Below are positions 1 to 7,472 of a stretch of DNA of 7,472 bases, piece after piece. Position numbers and translations under genes: made by a program. The stretch covers positions 1-7,472 of the IMG/VR virus record IMGVR_UViG_2660238346_000032; one strand, written 5' to 3'. Positions within the stretch are counted from its first letter, which is position 1. Every line of letters starts with the position of its first letter. Source of the DNA: a virus (lineage: Duplodnaviria; Heunggongvirae; Uroviricota; Caudoviricetes). The notes beneath the pieces are model-generated. The model searched no databases. It was not told the origin of the DNA and saw nothing but the letters and a program-made list of their open reading frames with translations.

Positions 1-74
1 TCCGTAACGCCTCTGCCACGCGCGTAACGTGACAGGGATTAAGGGTAAACTAATTGATTTTGCAAGTTTTTATT

Positions 75-1361
75 TTACCCAGCTTTCTTATGGGGCATAC
101 ATGGGACACTTTCAGATAGTCTTTTGTTAAGGAGTTCTGTCTGTTCGTGATTGTTGTCTTTCATCCATGCTCCGTAAACATTGAATACCATTTGTGCGTT
201 TGTGTGGCCCATCTGGCTTGCGATAAAACTAGGATTAGCTCCTGCGGCAAGTGACCAGCATGCATAAGTATGCCTGGATTGGTACGATTTTCTGTGTCTC
301 AGACCTGCGCGTTTTAAGATACTTGTCCATGACTCCCTGATGGAGTCAACCTTGTAGTGAGGTCCGGACAACTGCTGCTGTTTTGTTACCTGAGGACTAA
401 AAACAAAAGTGCATTTATGCACAGCAGTTCTCCCATATTCCCTCTGCTTCACCTCTACAGAATGTTGCTTTCCAAGCATGGTCATTTCCGCCTGGCTTTT
501 AAGAGCATCAATAGCTGGTTGAACCAGATGAATTGTCCTTCCGGTGCCTGCATCGGTTTTTGGTGGAGTGAATTCGCCAAGTTTTGTATAATTTCTACGG
601 ATGGTTATAGTCCTTGCTTTAAGGTCTATATCTTCCCATGCCAGCGATACCAACTCCCCGTGACGAATACCCGTGTATACAGCGAGAATCCACAGGTTTT
701 TTGTTTGTTGATGACGGCAAGCCTCAATAAAACGAATAAATTCGTCACGGGTGAGAGGATCTGGTTTTACCTTGGACTTTTTTAAGGGAGCCAGACCGTT
801 AAATGGGTTTCCTGAGGTATAACCATTATCTGTTGCAAATTGAAACATTCCAGCTATGGTTGTCATATAGTAGTTTACCGTGACCACTGAGCGCCCTTTT
901 ATGGAAGAAGTCTTTCCATTAGAAAGCTTTTGGTAACCGGTCAACAAATCTCTCCTTACGAAAAGTAAATCCTCTTTTGTTATGGATGAAACCAGTTTTT
1001 TTTCACCTAACATTGGTAACATGTTTTTAATTACTGACTGGTAACGGTTAAGTGCATTCGCACAAATCTCAATTTTCTTAAGGTCCAACCATTTTTCCGA
1101 AAGTGCCTTAACGGTTATCTCTCTTTTTCCCAGACCAAAGTGTTTCAGGTTAGGGGAATTAGGGAACTGCGCGGCATAGTCGAAACTCCCCATTCTGATT
1201 GCAAAACAAACGGAAGTGCGAAGTTCACCAGCGATCTTCCGGTTTTTGGCTGTGTCAGGAACACCGAGGTTTTCTCTGACACGTTTGCCATTATAGTGAA
1301 ACCATATACGGAGTGATCCTCCATGGTTTTCAACGCCTGTCGGGTATGATGCGTTACTCAT
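75..1361 (-). CDS. int: Phage tyrosine integrase (lambdoid prophage Int, IntR-like)
   Basis: 428-aa ORF. ATG at 1361..1359 is preceded by GGGAGG with a 5-nt spacer. C-terminal region carries the tyrosine-recombinase catalytic signature (TGIRHGEL, SRHTYAC, MGHTNAQMVFNVYGAW, i.e. R / HxxR / Y). Overall architecture resembles E. coli Rac-type IntR as recalled from memory. It is the first gene at the left end of the block, as expected for a prophage integrase. Confidence 0.9.
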   Translation of the reverse strand: MSNASYPTGVENHGGSLRIWFHYNGKRVRENLGVPDTAKNRKIAGELRTSVCFAIRMGSFDYAAQFPNSPNLKHFGLGKREITVKALSEKWLDLKKIEICANALNRYQSVIKNMLPMLGEKKLVSSITKEDLLFVRRDLLTGYQKLSNGKTSSIKGRSVVTVNYYMTTIAGMFQFATDNGYTSGNPFNGLAPLKKSKVKPDPLTRDEFIRFIEACRHQQTKNLWILAVYTGIRHGELVSLAWEDIDLKARTITIRRNYTKLGEFTPPKTDAGTGRTIHLVQPAIDALKSQAEMTMLGKQHSVEVKQREYGRTAVHKCTFVFSPQVTKQQQLSGPHYKVDSIRESWTSILKRAGLRHRKSYQSRHTYACWSLAAGANPSFIASQMGHTNAQMVFNVYGAWMKDNNHEQTELLNKRLSESVPCMPHKKAG

Positions 1362-1394
1362 TAAACCTCCCAGACGTCCAGGAGCATTAACAGG

Positions 1395-1649
1395 TTAACC
1401 GGAACTTGCATTTTTGGCACCTGGTTGTTTCTGGTTTTCGATCCATCGCATAATTTCTTCGATGTTGTACAGGCATTCACTGTAGTGCCCCGGATCACCT
1501 TCTACAGCGTAATGGCGGTATTCTTTTCCCTGCATCCATGACTTTCTTCTTGCCCGCTCAATGGTGCCAGGCTTTAGCCCTGTTGATGCAATGAGGACTC
1601 TCTCCGTACACCATTTGCTGGGGGTTATCTGATAGATGATTGTCTGCAT
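1395..1649 (-). CDS. xis: Putative excisionase / excisionase-like DNA-binding protein
   Basis: 84-aa ORF immediately upstream of int with a 33-nt gap, in the same orientation. ATG at 1649 is preceded by GAGGT. Small basic protein (WCTERV, ERARRKSW, GKEYRHYA) in the canonical xis position. Family assignment rests on position and size, not on a verified alignment. Confidence 0.55.
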   Translation of the reverse strand: MQTIIYQITPSKWCTERVLIASTGLKPGTIERARRKSWMQGKEYRHYAVEGDPGHYSECLYNIEEIMRWIENQKQPGAKNASSG

Positions 1650-1667
1650 GCCAACCTCATAAAATTT

Positions 1668-1802
1668 TCATCCACGGCAGTGGCACCACACGTCAAACAT
1701 TCGCTTCACAACTTCACGACAGTAGAAGCCGTCAACATCTCGCGTCAGGTCATAGCGATTGCCGTAACGCTGGTGGACCCATCGTTCAAATGCTTTATTC
1801 AT
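1668..1802 (-). CDS. Small hypothetical protein (44 aa, Cys/His-containing), not in the supplied ORF track
   Basis: Hand translation of the minus strand gives MNKAFERWVHQRYGNRYDLTRDVDGFYCREVVKRMFDVWCHCRG with a TGA stop at 1668..1670. ATG at 1802..1800 is preceded by AAGGAAG with about a 7-nt spacer. It fills the gap between the upstream gene stop (1806..1808) and the xis start exactly. Three Cys and two His (C28, C41, H42, C43, H10) could form a small metal-binding site. Confidence 0.4.
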   Translation of the reverse strand: MNKAFERWVHQRYGNRYDLTRDVDGFYCREVVKRMFDVWCHCRG

Positions 1803-1805
1803 TCT

Positions 1806-2048
1806 TTACTTCCTTTTTATGGCTCGTAATTTTTTCAGGTGCTTTTCCTGCTCAGTGTCCGCGAGAATTTTGCGGTACTCCTGGTGGTCAATATGTTCGA
1901 ACAGGCTGTTGAACTCAGTGATGCGTACCCGCCCGGATCGTCCGTCCATCCGTCGAAAGAACACTGAGTGCTCAGTGATGCGAGTAATCACCACGGGGTA
2001 TCCGGCTCTGTCCGTGTATATCTGCCCGCGTTGAATCAAAGCGAACAT
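1806..2048 (-). CDS. Hypothetical phage protein (80 aa from ATG 2048; track ORF extends to a TTG at 2084)
   Basis: ORF in the same orientation and tightly packed. The first ATG is at 2048..2046 (MFALIQRGQIYTDRAGYPVVITRITEH...), preceded by a weak GGGGA SD. The track's longer 92-aa form starts at a TTG with no SD. Contains an internal RITE(H/F) repeat. No family recognised. Confidence 0.5.
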   Translation of the reverse strand: MFALIQRGQIYTDRAGYPVVITRITEHSVFFRRMDGRSGRVRITEFNSLFEHIDHQEYRKILADTEQEKHLKKLRAIKRK

Positions 2049-2132
2049 GTGGTTATCCCCATCGACAAATCGAGTACACAACAAACGCTGCTGCGAATAC
2101 CATCCCCAGAGTTACGATTGCATCAGGCCAGC

Positions 2133-2498
2133 TCATTGATTCACCTCCTGCGGCGGCTCCGGTAGCGGCATCCAGTGGGTTACTTTCGATGCCGGTTCTT
2201 CCCCATTGTCAGTAACTGCCCACCATTTGTTTCTCGAACAATCGTAATACCCTTCGAAGGTATCGCACTCAGTCCAGCCGTAAGACTTACCCCAACACCA
2301 AACATACTGTTTATCGTTCGGCATTCGCTCACTACAGCTTATCCAGCCATCCGTAGTTACCGGAGAATTGCCAGCCTTGCGCATGGCAATCTCCATGATT
2401 TCAACCATATCCCCTGGTGGAATTTTACAATGCTGACCAGTATGCCTCTGCTGTCTGGCATATTCGAGGATGTGCTCCAGCTTGGTACGATTAATCAT
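2133..2498 (-). CDS. DUF551-domain phage protein
   Basis: 121-aa ORF. The C-terminal half (WISCSERMP ... VTHWMPLPEPP) matches the characteristic DUF551 W...W / THWMPLPEPP pattern seen in many enterobacterial prophage proteins. ATG at 2498 overlaps the upstream stop as ATGA and is preceded by GGGAGA. Confidence 0.7.
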   Translation of the reverse strand: MINRTKLEHILEYARQQRHTGQHCKIPPGDMVEIMEIAMRKAGNSPVTTDGWISCSERMPNDKQYVWCWGKSYGWTECDTFEGYYDCSRNKWWAVTDNGEEPASKVTHWMPLPEPPQEVNQ

Positions 2499-3004
2499 GA
2501 TTTATCTCCCTTAAGCATGGCAGCGCGGCAGGCATCCTCTACGCCCTTAACTGCATCTGCGCAGTAGTTATAGCGATTGCATTCCACTAACTTCTGCTTG
2601 AGATTTTCAATTGATTGCGCGATATCAGCCTGTATTACCGGAGCTGGCGGAACGGCTGTCTGCACTCGAACGTCATCAGGTACTACCGGCTCTACTGCCA
2701 ACTGACTGGCATATTTGTTAATGGTAACGATAAGCTCTTGCTCGGCCTCATCCAGACAATCACCGATACCTCGCCTGTCACCATCAAAATCATCGAAATC
2801 GGCGCGAATCCTGGCAACCTCCCGGATTGCGGACAACACCTCACCAGGAATTACCGTAGAGTTGCCCGATAGTACATTCTGCTCCAGTGATGCCAGTGCA
2901 ATCCGTGCCAGCTCACGAATCTCACCGCCGTCTATATCGTCAATGTCATCACGGCCAGAAATGTTAGCCAGCCATTGCAGTCGCTCTTTGGTAATAGTGA
3001 TCAT
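2495..3004 (-). CDS. Hypothetical acidic phage protein (169 aa)
   Basis: ATG at 3004 overlaps the upstream gene stop as ATGA and is preceded by AAGGAA. Strongly acidic composition (DDIDDIDGGE, ADFDDFDGD). N-terminus MITITKERL resembles the N-terminus of the 101-aa protein at 4179..4484. Confidence 0.6.
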   Translation of the reverse strand: MITITKERLQWLANISGRDDIDDIDGGEIRELARIALASLEQNVLSGNSTVIPGEVLSAIREVARIRADFDDFDGDRRGIGDCLDEAEQELIVTINKYASQLAVEPVVPDDVRVQTAVPPAPVIQADIAQSIENLKQKLVECNRYNYCADAVKGVEDACRAAMLKGDKS

Positions 3005-3516
3005 GCCGCGTTTCCTTCTTCCTTATTAACAATTACACCGTCATATATTTCATTAAGGTGCCCTCTCAACTCCATGCGCCTTAATGCAGATAACATGTAA
3101 TCGCATTCAACCTGCTTATTCCCAGTAAATGGCTTATCGTCAGGATTACCCCAACAGCAATTACCCCTGGGCCATCCATGTACTTTCCGTACTCTTCCGT
3201 TAACAACGTGAAGTAATCCCCAGCCGGGAGGTAAATCCTCAACTGAAATAATTTCCGGCTCACTAATAAAGAATCGCCAGTCGCCCATGCCAAGTGAGGG
3301 ATTTTTACGGAAACGCTTTTTTCTATCTGCCAACAAGTCAGCACGAGAACACTTCGCTTCTATCAGGCATGATGCTGAATTTCTGAATCCCATAGCATCT
3401 GGCTGTTCTCCGGTACTGGTTACAGCTATAAAGCGGTCATGAAAACAAACCTTGAACCCGTTGCGCTTAAGGAACTTGTACGCAATCTGACAGAGTTCGC
3501 GGTGTGTTAACGCCAT
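3001..3516 (-). CDS. Putative PD-(D/E)xK-fold nuclease-like protein (171 aa)
   Basis: The track ORF runs to 3597 but would overlap the upstream gene by about 80 nt. ATG at 3516..3514 (MALTHRELCQ...) is preceded by AAGGAGAG and lies 1 nt after the upstream stop. Motif E7 ... G-E-Q-P-D40 ... L-I-E53-A-K55 has the spacing (12 residues between D and ExK) and context of Hjc/VRR-NUC/RecB-like PD-(D/E)xK nucleases. The C-terminal roughly 90 aa (GWGLLHVVNGR ... CCWGNPDD) is unrecognised. Confidence 0.55.
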   Translation of the reverse strand: MALTHRELCQIAYKFLKRNGFKVCFHDRFIAVTSTGEQPDAMGFRNSASCLIEAKCSRADLLADRKKRFRKNPSLGMGDWRFFISEPEIISVEDLPPGWGLLHVVNGRVRKVHGWPRGNCCWGNPDDKPFTGNKQVECDYMLSALRRMELRGHLNEIYDGVIVNKEEGNAA

Positions 3517-3517
3517 A

Positions 3518-4192
3518 TCACTCTCCTTTGATGCGAATGCCAGCGGCGCGTGGCACATTAACTTCCACGATGCGCACAGTTGGTTTGTACATCTCAATCG
3601 CTGTCAGCCAGTCAGCGCCAGTCATGCGCTTTTCTGCATCGCCATTAGTCCACTTAACCGGTACACCAATAGCCTTCATCGCGATTTCTATTTCCCCGGC
3701 AATGGCGCTTTTTCCGCAACCAGTAAAACCAGAAACAACGACAAGAACTTCACCTTTGGCTGGTTTTATTTCCCGTGCTTCCAGTTCAGCAATACGCTTA
3801 CTTCCATCCGAGATAACACCTTCGTAATACTCACGCTGCTCGTTGAGTTTTGATTTTGCCGACTCCAGTTGTTTTGTTAGTTCCGCAATACGGCAAACAT
3901 CGTTGATACGCGTTTCCTCTAATGCGTTGATCTCATCCAGTAGTGCCAAAGCAACCTTTGGATTAAAGGCAGCAATAAATTCAGCGTTTGCGTAAGCCTG
4001 AGCATCTGTTTCAACCAGGCAGTTAACATGACATTCTGCAATCACGCCACCGGGTTCTCCTTTCCATTTTTGGCAAACAAAAACTCCTGTTAAATTGCCG
4101 TGCTGGTTAACAGATGTATGCCCTACGATGTAGCTTCCTTTAGTTGCTTTCTCTGCCTTTTCACGCAGTGCCTGATAGTTAATCTCGCTCAC
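3518..4192 (-). CDS. Ea22-like (Ead/Ea22 family) protein with coiled-coil and P-loop-like C-terminal module
   Basis: The most plausible start is GTG at 4192..4190, preceded by a perfect AAGGAGG with a 6-nt spacer. The track's 4234 start is a TTG without an SD. N-terminus SEINYQALREKAEKATKG ... AEFIAAFNPKVALALLDE resembles the Ead/Ea22-like N-terminal domain as recalled from memory. The central segment is heptad-like (LEETRINDVCRIAELTKQLESAKSKLNEQREYYE). The C-terminus contains VLVVVSGFTGCGKSAIAGEIEIAMKAIG, i.e. a strand plus GxxxxGKS Walker-A-like loop plus helix. Confidence 0.65.
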   Translation of the reverse strand: MSEINYQALREKAEKATKGSYIVGHTSVNQHGNLTGVFVCQKWKGEPGGVIAECHVNCLVETDAQAYANAEFIAAFNPKVALALLDEINALEETRINDVCRIAELTKQLESAKSKLNEQREYYEGVISDGSKRIAELEAREIKPAKGEVLVVVSGFTGCGKSAIAGEIEIAMKAIGVPVKWTNGDAEKRMTGADWLTAIEMYKPTVRIVEVNVPRAAGIRIKGE

Positions 4193-4484
4193 TGGCTGCC
4201 TCCTTTGCTGGGCTTTCGAATATATCAAACTCAAACAACTTAACTACGTCATCAAACAGGACATAATCGCCATCAGAATCTTCAGTCATGTCAGCGCCAC
4301 AATCCTGACCGAACGAGTCACAACCACCCATATCAAGCTCGTATCGCTTGAGTTTTGCGATATTTGATAAATTCAGCGCCAGTACAGCAAGGTCATAAAC
4401 CTCGTCAGCGGTATACCCTGCACCATGCCCATACATTTCAATGCGGGATATGATTTCTTCTACACGTTGTTTTGTGATTGTCAT
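4179..4484 (-). CDS. Hypothetical highly acidic small protein (101 aa)
   Basis: ATG at 4484 overlaps the upstream stop as ATGA and is preceded by GGGAGGTGA. I count roughly 23 Asp/Glu against 9 Lys/Arg, with an acidic C-terminal tail (DMTEDSDGDYVLFDDVVKLFEFDIFE). N-terminal MTITKQRV resembles the N-terminus of the 2495..3004 protein. Confidence 0.6.
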   Translation of the reverse strand: MTITKQRVEEIISRIEMYGHGAGYTADEVYDLAVLALNLSNIAKLKRYELDMGGCDSFGQDCGADMTEDSDGDYVLFDDVVKLFEFDIFESPAKEAASERD

Positions 4485-4966
4485 TTTTGCTCACCTCCCT
4501 GTTCTTCCAGAAAAATACGCATAGCCTCAAGCATCTCTTCGGTGTCATACGGTGACAACTTGTCACGCAGGATGTGTTCAATGCTGTTAACGAACTTGCG
4601 GATTGCTTTGCGTTCAATTTCAGCCAGGAAAGCGTCTGTAGCCGGGGTTTGCGGCATACCTCCGTCTGTTGCGCAGATATACGCATCAGATAGTTCATCC
4701 TGCTCGCCATCAAACACGTAGCAACTCTGTACGATAAATTTATTCAGCCCCGCACTCTCCGCTGCCAGCGCCGCGCACTTGGCCTCAAGGTTATCAATCG
4801 TGATTCCAGCAGAACGACACTCCCGCAACGCCGTTTCTAGTTTTGATTCAAGTTCACCGAACTTACGGACAAGATATTCAGCGTTTGTTTCGTTAACCTT
4901 TAAATCTCGGGGGATGCATTTACCTTTCAGAAATCCATCCATCTCAATTAGTGACATTTGTTTCAT
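4481..4966 (-). CDS. Hypothetical acidic phage protein (161 aa)
   Basis: ATG at 4966 is preceded by GGAG. It is the first gene after a 171-bp gap and is followed by ATGA-coupled downstream genes. Acidic, with a predicted helical/coiled-coil central segment. No family recognised. Confidence 0.6.
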
Positions 4967-5137
4967 TTCTTCCCACTCCGCAACATCGCATTCAGATATT
5001 TGTTTTGATTTACTGATGGAAAAGAATTTCTCTTAAGCAATTCCTCTCTCGATGGCATTGGCTTTACGCGTTGGTGAATAATCATTTCTGCCGGAAGAAT
5101 GCCGGGGTTGTATGCAAGTCATCTCATGGTAAATTCC

Positions 5138-5431
5138 TCAGTCATTACTGATAGCGCCATAGCGTGATCGGTAATTACGCAGGCGCGGGTCAATTTCAGG
5201 GAAGTGGGTATATGTGGCTTTGCGGAATGGTCGGATTGATGTCTGGTAAATTCGCTCGCGTTCTTCTTTCTCTGCAAGCCATATACAATGGCGAAATTCC
5301 TTTTCCTCTTTCGTTTCCTGCGGTAGCGACATTATCCGGTCGTAGTTTTTTCTGAATTTATCCAGCACCTCCGATACGGAATTGCCGGAACAGCGGCGCG
5401 CGTCGTCCGCACCATAGAGAGGCGCTGGCAT
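5138..5431 (-). CDS. Hypothetical phage protein (97 aa)
   Basis: ATG at 5431 is preceded by AGGAG with a 7-nt spacer, 13 nt downstream of the ssb stop. Charged protein (KEEKEFRHCIWLAEKEERER). No family recognised. Confidence 0.55.
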   Translation of the reverse strand: MPAPLYGADDARRCSGNSVSEVLDKFRKNYDRIMSLPQETKEEKEFRHCIWLAEKEERERIYQTSIRPFRKATYTHFPEIDPRLRNYRSRYGAISND

Positions 5432-5444
5432 GATTTTCTCCTGA

Positions 5445-5951
5445 TTAAATTGCGTGAATAGCGTGACGAGGGAAGGGGAGAGTTACTGGTGCAAAGGGTA
5501 TATCGTCGTCAAAATCCATCGGAGGTTCGTTGTGTTGTGCTGGTGATGATTGCTGCTGTGGCTTCTGTGATTGCCTGCTGGCTGCTTGTTGTTTGCTGTC
5601 GCCAATGCCGCCAAGCATTTGCATCACGCCATTAATTCCGACATGAACCTCGGTTGTGTAACGGTCTTGCCCTGACTGGTCTTTCCACTTTCTGGTTCTC
5701 AGCATTCCCTCGAAATAAATCTGATCACCTTTTTTCACATACTGCCCCACGACCCCAGCCAGTTTCCCGGATACAGCAACACGATACCATTCAGTCAATT
5801 CCTTTTGCTCGCCAGTATTTTTATCTCGCCATTGTTCTGACGTGGCTATTGTCAGGTTAGCGAACGCTGTACCTGATGGTGAGTATCGAACTTCCGGGTC
5901 TTGTCCTACCCGACCAAGGATAATCACCTTATTTATCCCGCGAGAACTCAT
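5445..5951 (-). CDS. ssb: Single-stranded DNA-binding protein (prophage SSB) with atypical C-terminal extension
   Basis: Probable start is ATG at 5951..5949 ([23 protein letters not shown]...), preceded by GAGGTGGAG. The track start at 5960 is a GTG three codons upstream. The OB-fold region aligns closely with E. coli SSB ([23 protein letters not shown] ... [19 protein letters not shown]) as recalled from memory, followed by a Q/S/P-rich linker and the conserved acidic tip [11 protein letters not shown]. The ORF then continues 15 codons ([15 protein letters not shown]) before TAA at 5445..5447. Confidence 0.9.
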
Positions 5952-6415
5952 TTGCTCCACCTCTTGCCAGTTTTTATGTTGCTTATAATTGATTGAGATA
6001 CACCCATGTCTTTTGCTATCTTGTACTGACTCTCTTTTTCAGAGAGTCTTTTCCTGATTTCTATAACCTGCCACTCTGTTAATTTTGCACCATGATGAGC
6101 ATGACCTTTTTTTGCTCCACGATGCCTTCCTTTTGCTATCTTGTCGTCCATGTTTTCTTGCGCGCTACCTAAAAAGAGATGTTCAGGATTAACGCAGCAT
6201 GGGTTATCGCATTTGTGGCAAACCATCTTCCCAGATGGGATGGGGGAGTGATAAAGCTCAAAAGCAACCCGATGAGAAAGCATTGTTACGCCAAAGGCTA
6301 CAAATTTTGTGTATCCTCCTTTGTTTTTTGAATAGGTAGACTCCCAGCAACCTGTTGTTTCATTAACTTTGTAGCTGGACTCGAATCTTTTAATAATTCC
6401 GTCCAAGTGAGACAT
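5948..6415 (-). CDS. HNH endonuclease (HNH_3-type homing-endonuclease-like) with C-terminal putative DNA-binding region
   Basis: 155-aa [17 protein letters not shown] ... [42 protein letters not shown] matches the phage HNH_3 pattern (GCWE, KGGY, HR, CH.CDN..C.NP.HL). ATG at 6415..6413 abuts the upstream TAA stop (6416..6418). Its TGA stop (5948..5950) overlaps the ssb ATG as ATGA. Confidence 0.85.
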
Positions 6416-7123
6416 TTATGCCGCCTGTTTTAGTTCGTTAACTCTGATGTTCATTACATGAACGCATTTAGCCTGCGCATCCTCATTGCCAGCCATTAAT
6501 TGCCAGTCATGCTGATAACGTTCGATGAGTTTTTTCTTGTCAGTTTCTGTCGACGCATAATCGCTGAAGTCTTTCAGGATTTGTTCGCAGTCAACCGATG
6601 GAGATTTCTGGTTGGTATTTTCTGGTGATGGTTGATTGCCAGATGCTGGTATTGCCCATCCCGGCAGCGATGGAGGGGACCAGTAAAATCCTGTTCCATC
6701 CTTAAGTTTTTCCCTGTGCCATCCCTGCTTTTTATCGAGAGATGTTTGTGCGAAACCTTCCTCAAGGTTATACAGATACCGACCGATTCCCCACTGAACG
6801 GCAGCGCGCTTCATTGCACTGGAACGACCACCTTTTACGGCTTCTACCTGCGTGTTTTCAGCAGCATCCCATTTGGTTACCCATTCGGAATCAATCCTGA
6901 TTGATATGCCGCATTCAACGCCTCCGTTGTTGGGAATATCGCGGTATTCATTGCGCCATCCTGCTTTGCCGCAAACATCGTCCAGGCGTTTCATGATTGC
7001 CCTGTTCGTGACATAAGCCAGCACCATAGCCCACACCTTTCCATCGCGTGTTTTACCGCTTTGCTGTATTCGCCATTCGATATCTTCAGGGCTGAATGGC
7101 TCATCGAATTTATTCAAATCCAT
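6416..7123 (-). CDS. Single-strand annealing protein / phage recombinase, Rad52(Sak)-like
   Basis: 235-aa ORF. ATG at 7123 is preceded by GAGGTGA with a 5-nt spacer. Segment YVTNRAIMKRLDDVCGKAGW aligns position-for-position with the Rad52 core [20 protein letters not shown], and AMKRAAVQWGIGRYLY matches the conserved SSAP motif. It sits next to ssb, as in a recombination module. Confidence 0.7.
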   Translation of the reverse strand: MDLNKFDEPFSPEDIEWRIQQSGKTRDGKVWAMVLAYVTNRAIMKRLDDVCGKAGWRNEYRDIPNNGGVECGISIRIDSEWVTKWDAAENTQVEAVKGGRSSAMKRAAVQWGIGRYLYNLEEGFAQTSLDKKQGWHREKLKDGTGFYWSPPSLPGWAIPASGNQPSPENTNQKSPSVDCEQILKDFSDYASTETDKKKLIERYQHDWQLMAGNEDAQAKCVHVMNIRVNELKQAA

Positions 7124-7131
7124 AATTCACC

Positions 7132-7302
7132 TCAGAATGGACATAGCCCAAGGAAATAACGCTGATTTAATACTTCGACTCGGGACAAATTAAGGCATAC
7201 CCGCATTCCTTCGCGGTCACCATTATGGCGATACCAGAGAGCTTTCTGCGTGTATATGCGTCTCTGTAACTTGCTCTCCTTCACTGTGGTTGCAAGTGAC
7301 AT
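7132..7302 (-). CDS. Small hypothetical protein (56 aa) or remnant of a gene disrupted by the adjacent IS
   Basis: ATG at 7302..7300 (MSLATTVKESKLQRRIYTQKALWYRHNGDREGMRVCLNLSRVEVLNQRYFLGLCPF) is preceded by AGGAGA with a 5-nt spacer. The track start at 7338 is a GTG that lies inside the presumed IS end. The ORF stops 8 nt before the SSAP start. Confidence 0.35.
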   Translation of the reverse strand: MSLATTVKESKLQRRIYTQKALWYRHNGDREGMRVCLNLSRVEVLNQRYFLGLCPF

Positions 7303-7312
7303 GAATATCTCC

Positions 7313-7472
7313 TGAGGTAGCCTGAGTTTAACGGACACTCCTTCCTGAAATAGAATGGCATCAGAAGGAGCTAATAATGAGCAGAAAAACCCAACGTTAC
7401 TCTAAAGAGTTCAAAGCCGAAGCTGTCAGAACGGTTCTTGAAAATCAACTTTCGATCAGTGAAGGCGCTTCC
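7313..7472 (+). mobile_element. IS3-family insertion sequence, left end (partial; continues beyond window)
   Basis: A divergently oriented transposase OrfA begins at 7377. The roughly 65 bp upstream begins TGAGGTAGCC..., consistent with the TG-initiated left inverted repeat typical of IS3-family elements. The exact boundary at about 7313 is approximate. It resembles an IS600-like element from memory, which I could not verify. Confidence 0.6.
7377..7472 (+). CDS. IS3-family transposase OrfA (N-terminal 32 codons; truncated by window edge)
   Basis: ATG at 7377 is preceded by AAGGAG with about a 7-nt spacer. The translation MSRKTQRYSKEFKAEAVRTVLENQLSISEGAS has the N-terminal helix-turn-helix pattern (SxEFKxEAV ... 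LS.SE.A) of IS3-family OrfA proteins. Confidence 0.8.
   Translation, partial: MSRKTQRYSKEFKAEAVRTVLENQLSISEGAS

Follow-up and report, generated by a model that had tools for sequence, protein, structure and literature searches.

An Ea22 variant with a P-loop-like C-terminal module and a predicted MmcB-like PD-(D/E)xK nuclease assort independently in the early-left region of a lambdoid prophage

The stretch of DNA analyzed here (hereafter the window: 7,472 nucleotides (nt), positions 1 to 7,472 of the virus record IMGVR_UViG_2660238346_000032) is the early-left arm of a lambdoid prophage, in which 100% of the genes, and all the features described below, lie on the minus strand. Between xis and the recombination genes (Abc2, SSB and Rad52-type), it carries a gene encoding an Ea22-family protein of 224 amino acids (aa) (3518-4192) and a gene encoding a 171-aa protein with an MmcB-like PD-(D/E)xK nuclease fold, which belongs to the family of Upf89.0 from phage P7 (3001-3516). 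A preliminary description made from the sequence alone had placed these two genes 1 nt apart between xis and the recombination genes, as our coordinates confirm, and had considered them as a translationally coupled pair, a nuclease with its nucleotide-binding partner, that could be a defense module or could equally belong to phage DNA metabolism. Our analysis rather indicates, with a probability that we put at about 60%, that they are two independently assorting cassettes of a mosaic early-left (exo-xis type) lambdoid operon and not a two-component system. The first cassette encodes an Ea22-family protein with the N-terminal domain and coiled-coil stalk of the Ea22_V3 type found in Shiga toxin (Stx) phages, whose exchangeable C-terminal domain is here a mini P-loop-like module of about 70 aa. 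The second encodes a stand-alone MmcB-like PD-(D/E)xK enzyme whose predicted metal-dependent active site (D40, E53, K55) is intact, and carries its own ribosome-binding site, which also terminates any upstream gene 1 nt before the ATG.

The Ea22 module and the nuclease assort independently and do not constitute a dedicated two-gene defense system. Among 80 viral loci carrying the module (at 96% identity or more, with 3 kb flanks), the nuclease gene abuts the module in nine and is located elsewhere in the locus in six more, other genes coming after the module in the remainder. Reciprocally, the module is upstream of the nuclease gene in four of the 76 usable viral loci that carry the latter (98% identity or more), the others showing at least eight other kinds of upstream genes. 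The module was not found upstream of the nuclease homolog in any of 80 species genomes, and the upstream gene is unrelated in other genera. A 401-nt junction probe matched 1625 of 5426 complete Escherichia coli genomes and was contiguous in 78 of these 1625, most of the matches ending 13-35 nt into the upstream gene. The pairing, whose conservation across prophages the preliminary description had suggested examining, is the exception, and these counts do not show the conserved co-occurrence of a dedicated two-gene operon.

The close spacing of the two genes, that had been taken for translational coupling, goes with the nuclease cassette under any upstream gene. The Ea22-like open reading frame (ORF) ends with TGA at 3518-3520 and the nuclease gene starts with ATG at 3516, leaving a gap of one base (3517). 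This gap is exactly 1 nt in 74 of the 76 nuclease loci, and nearly all the upstream proteins, whatever their kind, end in ...KGE. Furthermore, DNA alignments with loci that have unrelated upstream genes show that homology starts only 15-35 nt before the nuclease ATG. The shared stretch, CAAAGGAGAGTGATATG, holds the nuclease Shine-Dalgarno sequence (SD) AAAGGAGAG, which the frame of the upstream gene translates as Lys-Gly-Glu; TGA, a single base and ATG follow. The left boundary of the nuclease cassette therefore covers 3517-3551 (SD at 3521-3529, TGA at 3518-3520 and spacer base 3517). Since its own SD, the TGA and the 1-nt spacing travel with the nuclease gene, the apparent coupling is built into this cassette and is no sign of a partnership with the module. 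In the Stx2 phage 1717, the same 171-aa gene is located, with the same 1-nt gap, behind an Ea22 gene whose product has a quite different C-terminal domain but the same ending, ...AGIRIKGE, and is the published Ea22_V3 (PMC10834534). In addition, all along the operon, genes are contiguous with their neighbors or overlap them by 4 to 14 nt, so that the tight spacing of this pair is not special. Two observations on these loci can be added. One class of upstream genes (loci L163-L243) is a 62-aa ORF (MKNRKAKILL...) that may be real or a junction artefact. In the P1-like phage JL22, a plasmid prophage (L001, 2042-4921), the Ea22-module gene and the nuclease gene form a block with eaA on one side and a gene for an adenine methyltransferase on the other. 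Evidently, P1-like genomes have acquired early-region cassettes of lambdoid type.

The most likely start of the Ea22-like gene is GTG 4192, 6 nt downstream of a Shine-Dalgarno sequence read from the sequence (AAGGAGG, 4199-4205), and the RefSeq start of the phage 1717 ortholog is at the same position. Its product matches the whole Pfam profile Ead_Ea22 (PF13935, positions 1-139 of 139) over residues 2-138 (3779-4189), with an E-value of 1.8e-28 and 100.3 bits for a cutoff of 27; it thus passes the membership threshold, in agreement with the Ea22-like N-terminal domain and coiled coil that had been recognized earlier. Over its first ~80 residues, the protein is near-identical to the Ea22_V3 of phage 1717. 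That Ea22 genes are mosaics in which the C-terminal domain can be exchanged is already known (PMC10834534), and a pro-lysogenic effect, shown for the Ea22 of lambda and of Stx phages, has been published (PMC7093339, PMC10834534). Tetramers were reported for lambda Ea22 and for the V3 variant, and the lambda C-terminal domain is dimeric; this domain is missing from the Ea22 genes of a set of enterohemorrhagic E. coli and Stx-phage genomes (PMC10834534). A dimeric C-terminal domain of the lambda type was not found in the window protein, no Ea22 chain being present among its PDB sequence matches (E up to 10). The window protein shares with lambda Ea22 and the Stx-phage variants Ea22_V1-V3 the Ead/Ea22 N-terminal region, the coiled coil and the early-left location between the recombination genes and xis. 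It differs from these known forms by its C-terminal domain, which is P-loop-like, is unlike that of V3 and matches no solved Ea22 chain. The novelty lies in this Ea22 variant and in the nuclease family described below, Ea22 mosaicism itself being already published.

This C-terminal domain, absent from the described lambda, V1, V2 and V3 forms, is a P-loop-like module of ~70 aa (residues 147-216, GEVLVVVSGFTGCGKSAIAGEIEI...VRIVEVNVPRA; 3545-3754). The Walker-A-like loop GFTGCGKS previously noticed in it (residues 155-162; 3707-3730) proved to be conserved: the Walker A pattern GxxxxGK[ST] stands behind a hydrophobic strand (VLVVVSGFTGCGKS) and is nearly invariant in relatives, and among 269 stretches matched in related proteins, about 259 carry G[FLYI]TG[CSTV]GKS. 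The last 86 residues of the protein have 297 close relatives (93-100% identical), mostly short Ea22-like proteins, a single one of which is named ATP-binding protein by one source. An exhaustive search of 1.84 billion representative proteins retrieved 446 clusters (counted at 50% identity, E up to 0.001). In relatives ranging from 94 to 623 aa, the match invariably covers the same ~72 residues, which lie at the C-terminus of 250 of 267 proteins, at the N-terminus of 11 and inside six, and no Pfam domain was detected in the rest of the ten module-bearing proteins tested. Comparison of 24 copies, chosen to differ by at least 12%, revealed 29 invariant positions, including a strand VxVxV, the motif G.TG.GKSA.AGEIEI, a conserved W, EK..T and E.Y.P.V.I.E. 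The motif is kept as GRTGRGKS ... IKIVEKN, at 35% identity, in ORF127 of the Ralstonia jumbo phage RSL2, and also in gp37 of the Burkholderia phage BcepC6B. The module is found in only 27 phage records, none of which is a Stx phage.

All the sub-threshold Pfam matches of the module are P-loop proteins, APS_kinase and AAA_16 being found with 22-23 of the 24 copies, and its PDB sequence matches are mostly P-loop proteins; together they include APS kinase (best E 3e-5), AAA_16, gluconate and shikimate kinases, UvrA and a designed phosphate-loop protein. These matches span only the strand, loop, helix and next strand of the module, do not extend past the first ~40 positions of the kinase profiles and are all below curated thresholds. 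As in P-loop kinases (APS, gluconate, shikimate) and in the designed minimal P-loop (PDB 6c2u), the order is strand, GxxGxGKS, helix, strand, then a later predicted hydrophobic strand ending in an invariant Glu (VRIVE). However, the module has ~70 residues and three predicted strands, compared to at least 150 residues and five strands for these kinases. Its AlphaFold2 model is poor (predicted local distance difference test (pLDDT) of 51), and it is in this low-confidence model that VRIVE, with its invariant Glu, lies on a predicted strand and is a candidate Walker B. Neither a complete three-layer alpha/beta core of five or more strands nor an above-threshold match to a P-loop profile was found. 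We read the module as a genuine domain under strong selection that carries a P-loop-like phosphate-binding motif. Its size is well below that of a canonical nucleoside triphosphatase (NTPase), and oligomerization may be needed: once gathered by the oligomeric stalk, the module would bind a phosphate-bearing ligand or a partner protein.

A bolder proposal, that we hold as tentative and rather unlikely, is that the module would be a natural minimal P-loop domain, with one Walker-A loop, a Walker-B-like strand and three strands, that would fold and bind a nucleotide or phosphate ligand only as an oligomer formed through the Ea22 coiled coil; phages would shuffle it as a portable sensor onto unrelated early proteins, thereby coupling nucleotide status to the choice between lysis and lysogeny. 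If this were true, the 446 clusters would make up a domain family not yet described, with the module as the natural equivalent of the designed P-loop prototypes. The lysogeny-promoting role of Ea22 in Stx phages being documented, ligand binding by the C-terminal domain would also give an experimental entry to the working of Ea22 variants. The most promising part for further work is this unannotated and strongly conserved mini P-loop-like module, which phages join to a variety of early proteins. A separate case is a 453-aa protein encoded by a prophage of Stenotrophomonas maltophilia (L244, 3197-8232), in which the module is N-terminal; its gene, near an integrase gene, is immediately preceded by the bAvd and reverse-transcriptase genes belonging to a diversity-generating retroelement, and a DNA methylase gene follows it.

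The nuclease gene extends from ATG 3516 to 3001. Sequence searches of Pfam, NCBIfam and PADLOC gave no match, a search of PDB with the single sequence gave only chance matches, and PHROGs gave only families of unknown function, besides a weak match to a "DNA repair protein" family (phrog_5429, E 0.005). A homology search retrieved 304 relatives across the Enterobacterales, each named hypothetical. When 54 of its relatives (58-97% identity) are aligned, 36 columns are invariant, among them those of E37, D40, E53 and K55 (codons at 3406-3408, 3397-3399, 3358-3360 and 3352-3354, respectively, the catalytic core spanning 3352-3408). The E ... PD ... EAK motifs of the preliminary description are thus in place, P39-D40 and E53-A-K55 being invariant in these 54 members. 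The AlphaFold2 model built from this alignment is confident (pLDDT 88.9, predicted template modeling score 0.83). Its order of elements, helix, strand, strand, strand, helix, strand, is that expected for a PD-(D/E)xK core, and D40 and E53-A-K55 are located on strands 41-45 and 48-55, as expected for a catalytic D ... (D/E)xK. The C-terminal part, initially described as an unrecognized domain, is a helical extension (helices 134-150 and 153-159) that is probably shared in part by SPO1766, 130 of whose 146 residues align. Homologs from Ackermannviridae match residues 4-113, the extension being outside the match. In 66 more distant loci (32-60% identity) from Shewanella, Halomonadaceae, Flavobacteria and many Acidobacteriota, E37, D40, E53, K55, R58, D60, D64, K67, R81, W99, R146 and R147 never vary; judged from this invariance, an active enzyme is the natural reading.

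The closest structural similarity of the model is to 3dnx, i.e., SPO1766, the solved member of the DUF1052/PF06319/COG5321 family that has been classed as PD-(D/E)xK (PMC3424549). This family is now named after MmcB of Caulobacter, a PD-(D/E)xK endonuclease that is induced by the SOS response and confers protection from mitomycin C and cisplatin (PMC9578287); a role in resistance to agents that cross-link DNA is known for this protein only. A profile of the nuclease family aligns below threshold to the stretch G..D..G....IE.K.SR.D...D.K of 3dnx, the hidden Markov model alignment giving G..D..G....(I/V)E.K.SR.D...D.K as the common motif string. Searches of viral models with Foldseek retrieved phage proteins named MmcB-like or MmcB family at E-values of 2e-7 to 5e-4, which are its nearest viral structural neighbors bearing a functional name; restriction enzymes and CRISPR-ancillary nucleases are also found among its structural neighbors. 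In Pfam scans of the window nuclease and of its 54 relatives (E up to 10), PF06319 did not appear among the matched families. Since these scans did not return it, the nuclease family is a sister family of the MmcB-like proteins and not a member by the curated criterion. It also differs from MmcB, encoded by an SOS-regulated chromosomal gene, by its location on phages and other mobile elements as a separate unannotated family. Concerning the Hjc/VRR-NUC type initially proposed, these Holliday-junction-type nucleases have the same superfamily fold and the same D...ExK arrangement; Pfam Hjc gave weak matches for 21 of the 54 relatives (best E 0.0029) and none for the window protein, whose nearest structural family is MmcB-like.

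Homologs of the nuclease were found in 643 phage records, including many virulent phages (Kuttervirus and other Ackermannviridae, Vibrio siphophages), and the family is also present in phage P7 (upf89.0) and in many Stx phages. In the virulent Salmonella phage PhiSH19 (Kuttervirus), the homolog ends at the first base of the DNA primase gene, and in the Vibrio phage MAR10, it comes after genes encoding a DnaC-like loader, a polymerase, a primase/helicase and a DEAD-box helicase, with overlapping ends. These replication-gene neighbors in virulent phages, the presence of SSB, Rad52-like and Abc2 genes in the window operon and the MmcB-like fold favor a role on the phage DNA itself, in repair, replication restart or recombination; phage DNA metabolism, the other possibility raised in the preliminary description, is therefore the better supported one. 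Conversely, a role in defense of the lysogen is disfavored, since virulent phages would gain nothing from it. Whereas folds, motifs and independent assortment are observed, substrates and biological role are what we infer: the enzyme would cut DNA, probably damaged or branched, and would thereby help the phage to replicate, recombine or repair its genome at an early time after infection or induction. Prophages induced by DNA damage would indeed have to replicate a damaged template.

Several points weigh against this interpretation. The listed records of nuclease homologs are almost all annotated as hypothetical. Their neighborhoods are heterogeneous (for example C5 and N6/N4 methyltransferases, TraC of conjugative elements, a nucleoid-associated protein or a CHAD-HD protein), so that a single role in replication or repair is not proven and the role may be broader. 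The link to MmcB comes from structure and from a sub-threshold motif match, PF06319 being unmatched in the 54 relatives. Ligand binding by the module is a conjecture, as its model is not a confident one. Finally, the two proteins may cooperate where they co-occur, which is compatible with independent assortment.

Some of these neighborhoods deserve mention on their own. A gene for a C5 or N6/N4 DNA methyltransferase immediately precedes the homolog in a Rheinheimera, a Salinicola and a Rhodobiaceae genome (L019, 3166-5007; L021, 3384-4991; L030, 4049-4804), the two genes overlapping in L019. This arrangement looks like restriction-modification but is not general for the family; a restriction-modification function, suggested by these three distant homologs, was rejected for the window, as there is no methyltransferase in it and as conservation is far above that of usual restriction enzymes. 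In two other loci (L017, 5480-8086; L023, 2076-4628), homologs adjoin genes encoding TraC/TraG-type conjugation ATPases, which shows that the family is carried by conjugative elements besides phages. In dozens of genomes of Acidobacteriota (L038-L082, e.g., L043, 3262-4944), the homolog is behind a gene encoding a protein of ~550 aa with CHAD and HD/Ppx-GppA domains, a conserved chromosomal neighborhood unlike the phage setting. The product of upf89.0 (phage P7, NC_050152.1, 89016-89528), 97.7% identical to the window nuclease, is labelled "minor tail protein" in RefSeq; this label does not fit a PD-(D/E)xK fold and was probably assigned in error.

Three other explanations of the locus were considered. 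The nuclease could by itself attack foreign or host DNA, for instance in host takeover, superinfection exclusion or counter-defense, instead of acting in phage DNA repair or replication. It is an early gene of varied mobile elements, occurring in phages, in conjugative transfer regions next to TraC and beside orphan-like DNA methyltransferases, and the restriction enzymes and CRISPR-ancillary nucleases among its structural neighbors are consistent with this. However, the nuclease has no recognizable specificity or sensor domain, no cognate methyltransferase is present in the window, and both the position in replication blocks of virulent phages and the closest structural family point to DNA maintenance, so that such an action seems improbable.

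The nuclease gene could also be a selfish cassette, similar to those of homing endonucleases, that would cut genomes devoid of it and spread by recombinational repair without any benefit for the phage. Free-standing homing nucleases are common in phages, the window itself includes an HNH_3 gene between ssb and the Rad52-like gene, and the presence/absence polymorphism behind many upstream genes, the sharp breakpoints 15-35 nt before the ATG and the self-contained SD would be expected from such a cassette. Nevertheless, sharp module boundaries are a general rule in lambdoid mosaics, the nuclease has no separate DNA-recognition domain, and its family is strongly conserved (more than 12 invariant residues at 32-60% identity), with the same neighbor, the CHAD-HD protein, in many genomes of one lineage (Acidobacteriota), which is atypical for homing nucleases. 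This explanation therefore looks quite doubtful.

Lastly, a two-gene anti-phage or abortive-infection module, in which the Ea22-like protein would sense infection through its nucleotide-binding module and activate or release the nuclease effector, is very unlikely: although the nuclease adjoins a Walker-A-bearing protein in a prophage accessory region and the very same pair is found again in phage JL22 (P1-like) and in 78 complete genomes of E. coli, this pairing is the exception (9/80 and 4/76 loci), a module of ~70 aa is too short for a canonical NTPase, the nuclease family is frequent inside the replication modules of virulent phages, PADLOC-DB 2.0 has no model matching the nuclease or the five flanking genes tested and gave only chance-level matches for the Ea22-like protein (E 0.011 and 0.014), and no promoter or terminator was found above shuffled expectation, so that the pair appears to be read with the early lytic operon and not in the lysogen.

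Returning to the two independent cassettes, this interpretation removes a plausible-looking but false candidate defense system. It also calls for caution with gene pairs of mosaic prophages, since tight "coupling" corresponds here to the ribosome-binding site of a mobile nuclease cassette that doubles as the last codons of the upstream gene. Furthermore, it provides, from the structural model, a predicted fold-level assignment (MmcB-like PD-(D/E)xK, active-site residues intact) for a family with homologs in 643 phage records, those of Stx phages and phage P7 among them.

The other genes of the window encode an integrase (75-1361), a DUF1233 excisionase (xis, 1395-1649), a DUF4222 protein (1806-2084), a DUF551 protein (2133-2498) and a 169-aa protein (2495-3004) on one side of the two genes. 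On the other side are two more small ORFs (4179-4484 and 4481-4966) and genes encoding a DUF2737 protein (4963-5085), the anti-RecBCD protein Abc2 (5138-5431), SSB (5445-5960), an HNH_3 endonuclease (5948-6415) and a Rad52-type annealing protein (6416-7123). Promoter-like sites are fewer in the window than in shuffled sequence and terminator-like sites are no commoner; no Rfam family was found in the window, and a repeat scan yielded only short pairs at chance level. DNA matches of the window are found in Stx phages, other lambdoid phages of E. coli and Salmonella and P1-like plasmids, always as mosaic pieces.

The product of the HNH_3 gene (Pfam E 1.1e-13) has a C-terminal helix-turn-helix; its gene, between the Rad52-like gene and ssb, overlaps the start of ssb by 13 nt and looks like a free-standing homing endonuclease gene inserted in the recombination module. 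The flanking 169-aa (2495-3004) and 161-aa (4481-4966) proteins have the PHROG families phrog_60 and phrog_368 in common with the Ea22-like protein, indicating that the region holds several related mosaic proteins. Finally, gene starts of the type MTTITKER..., as in the 169-aa gene, come after the Ea22-like gene in many loci devoid of the nuclease cassette.

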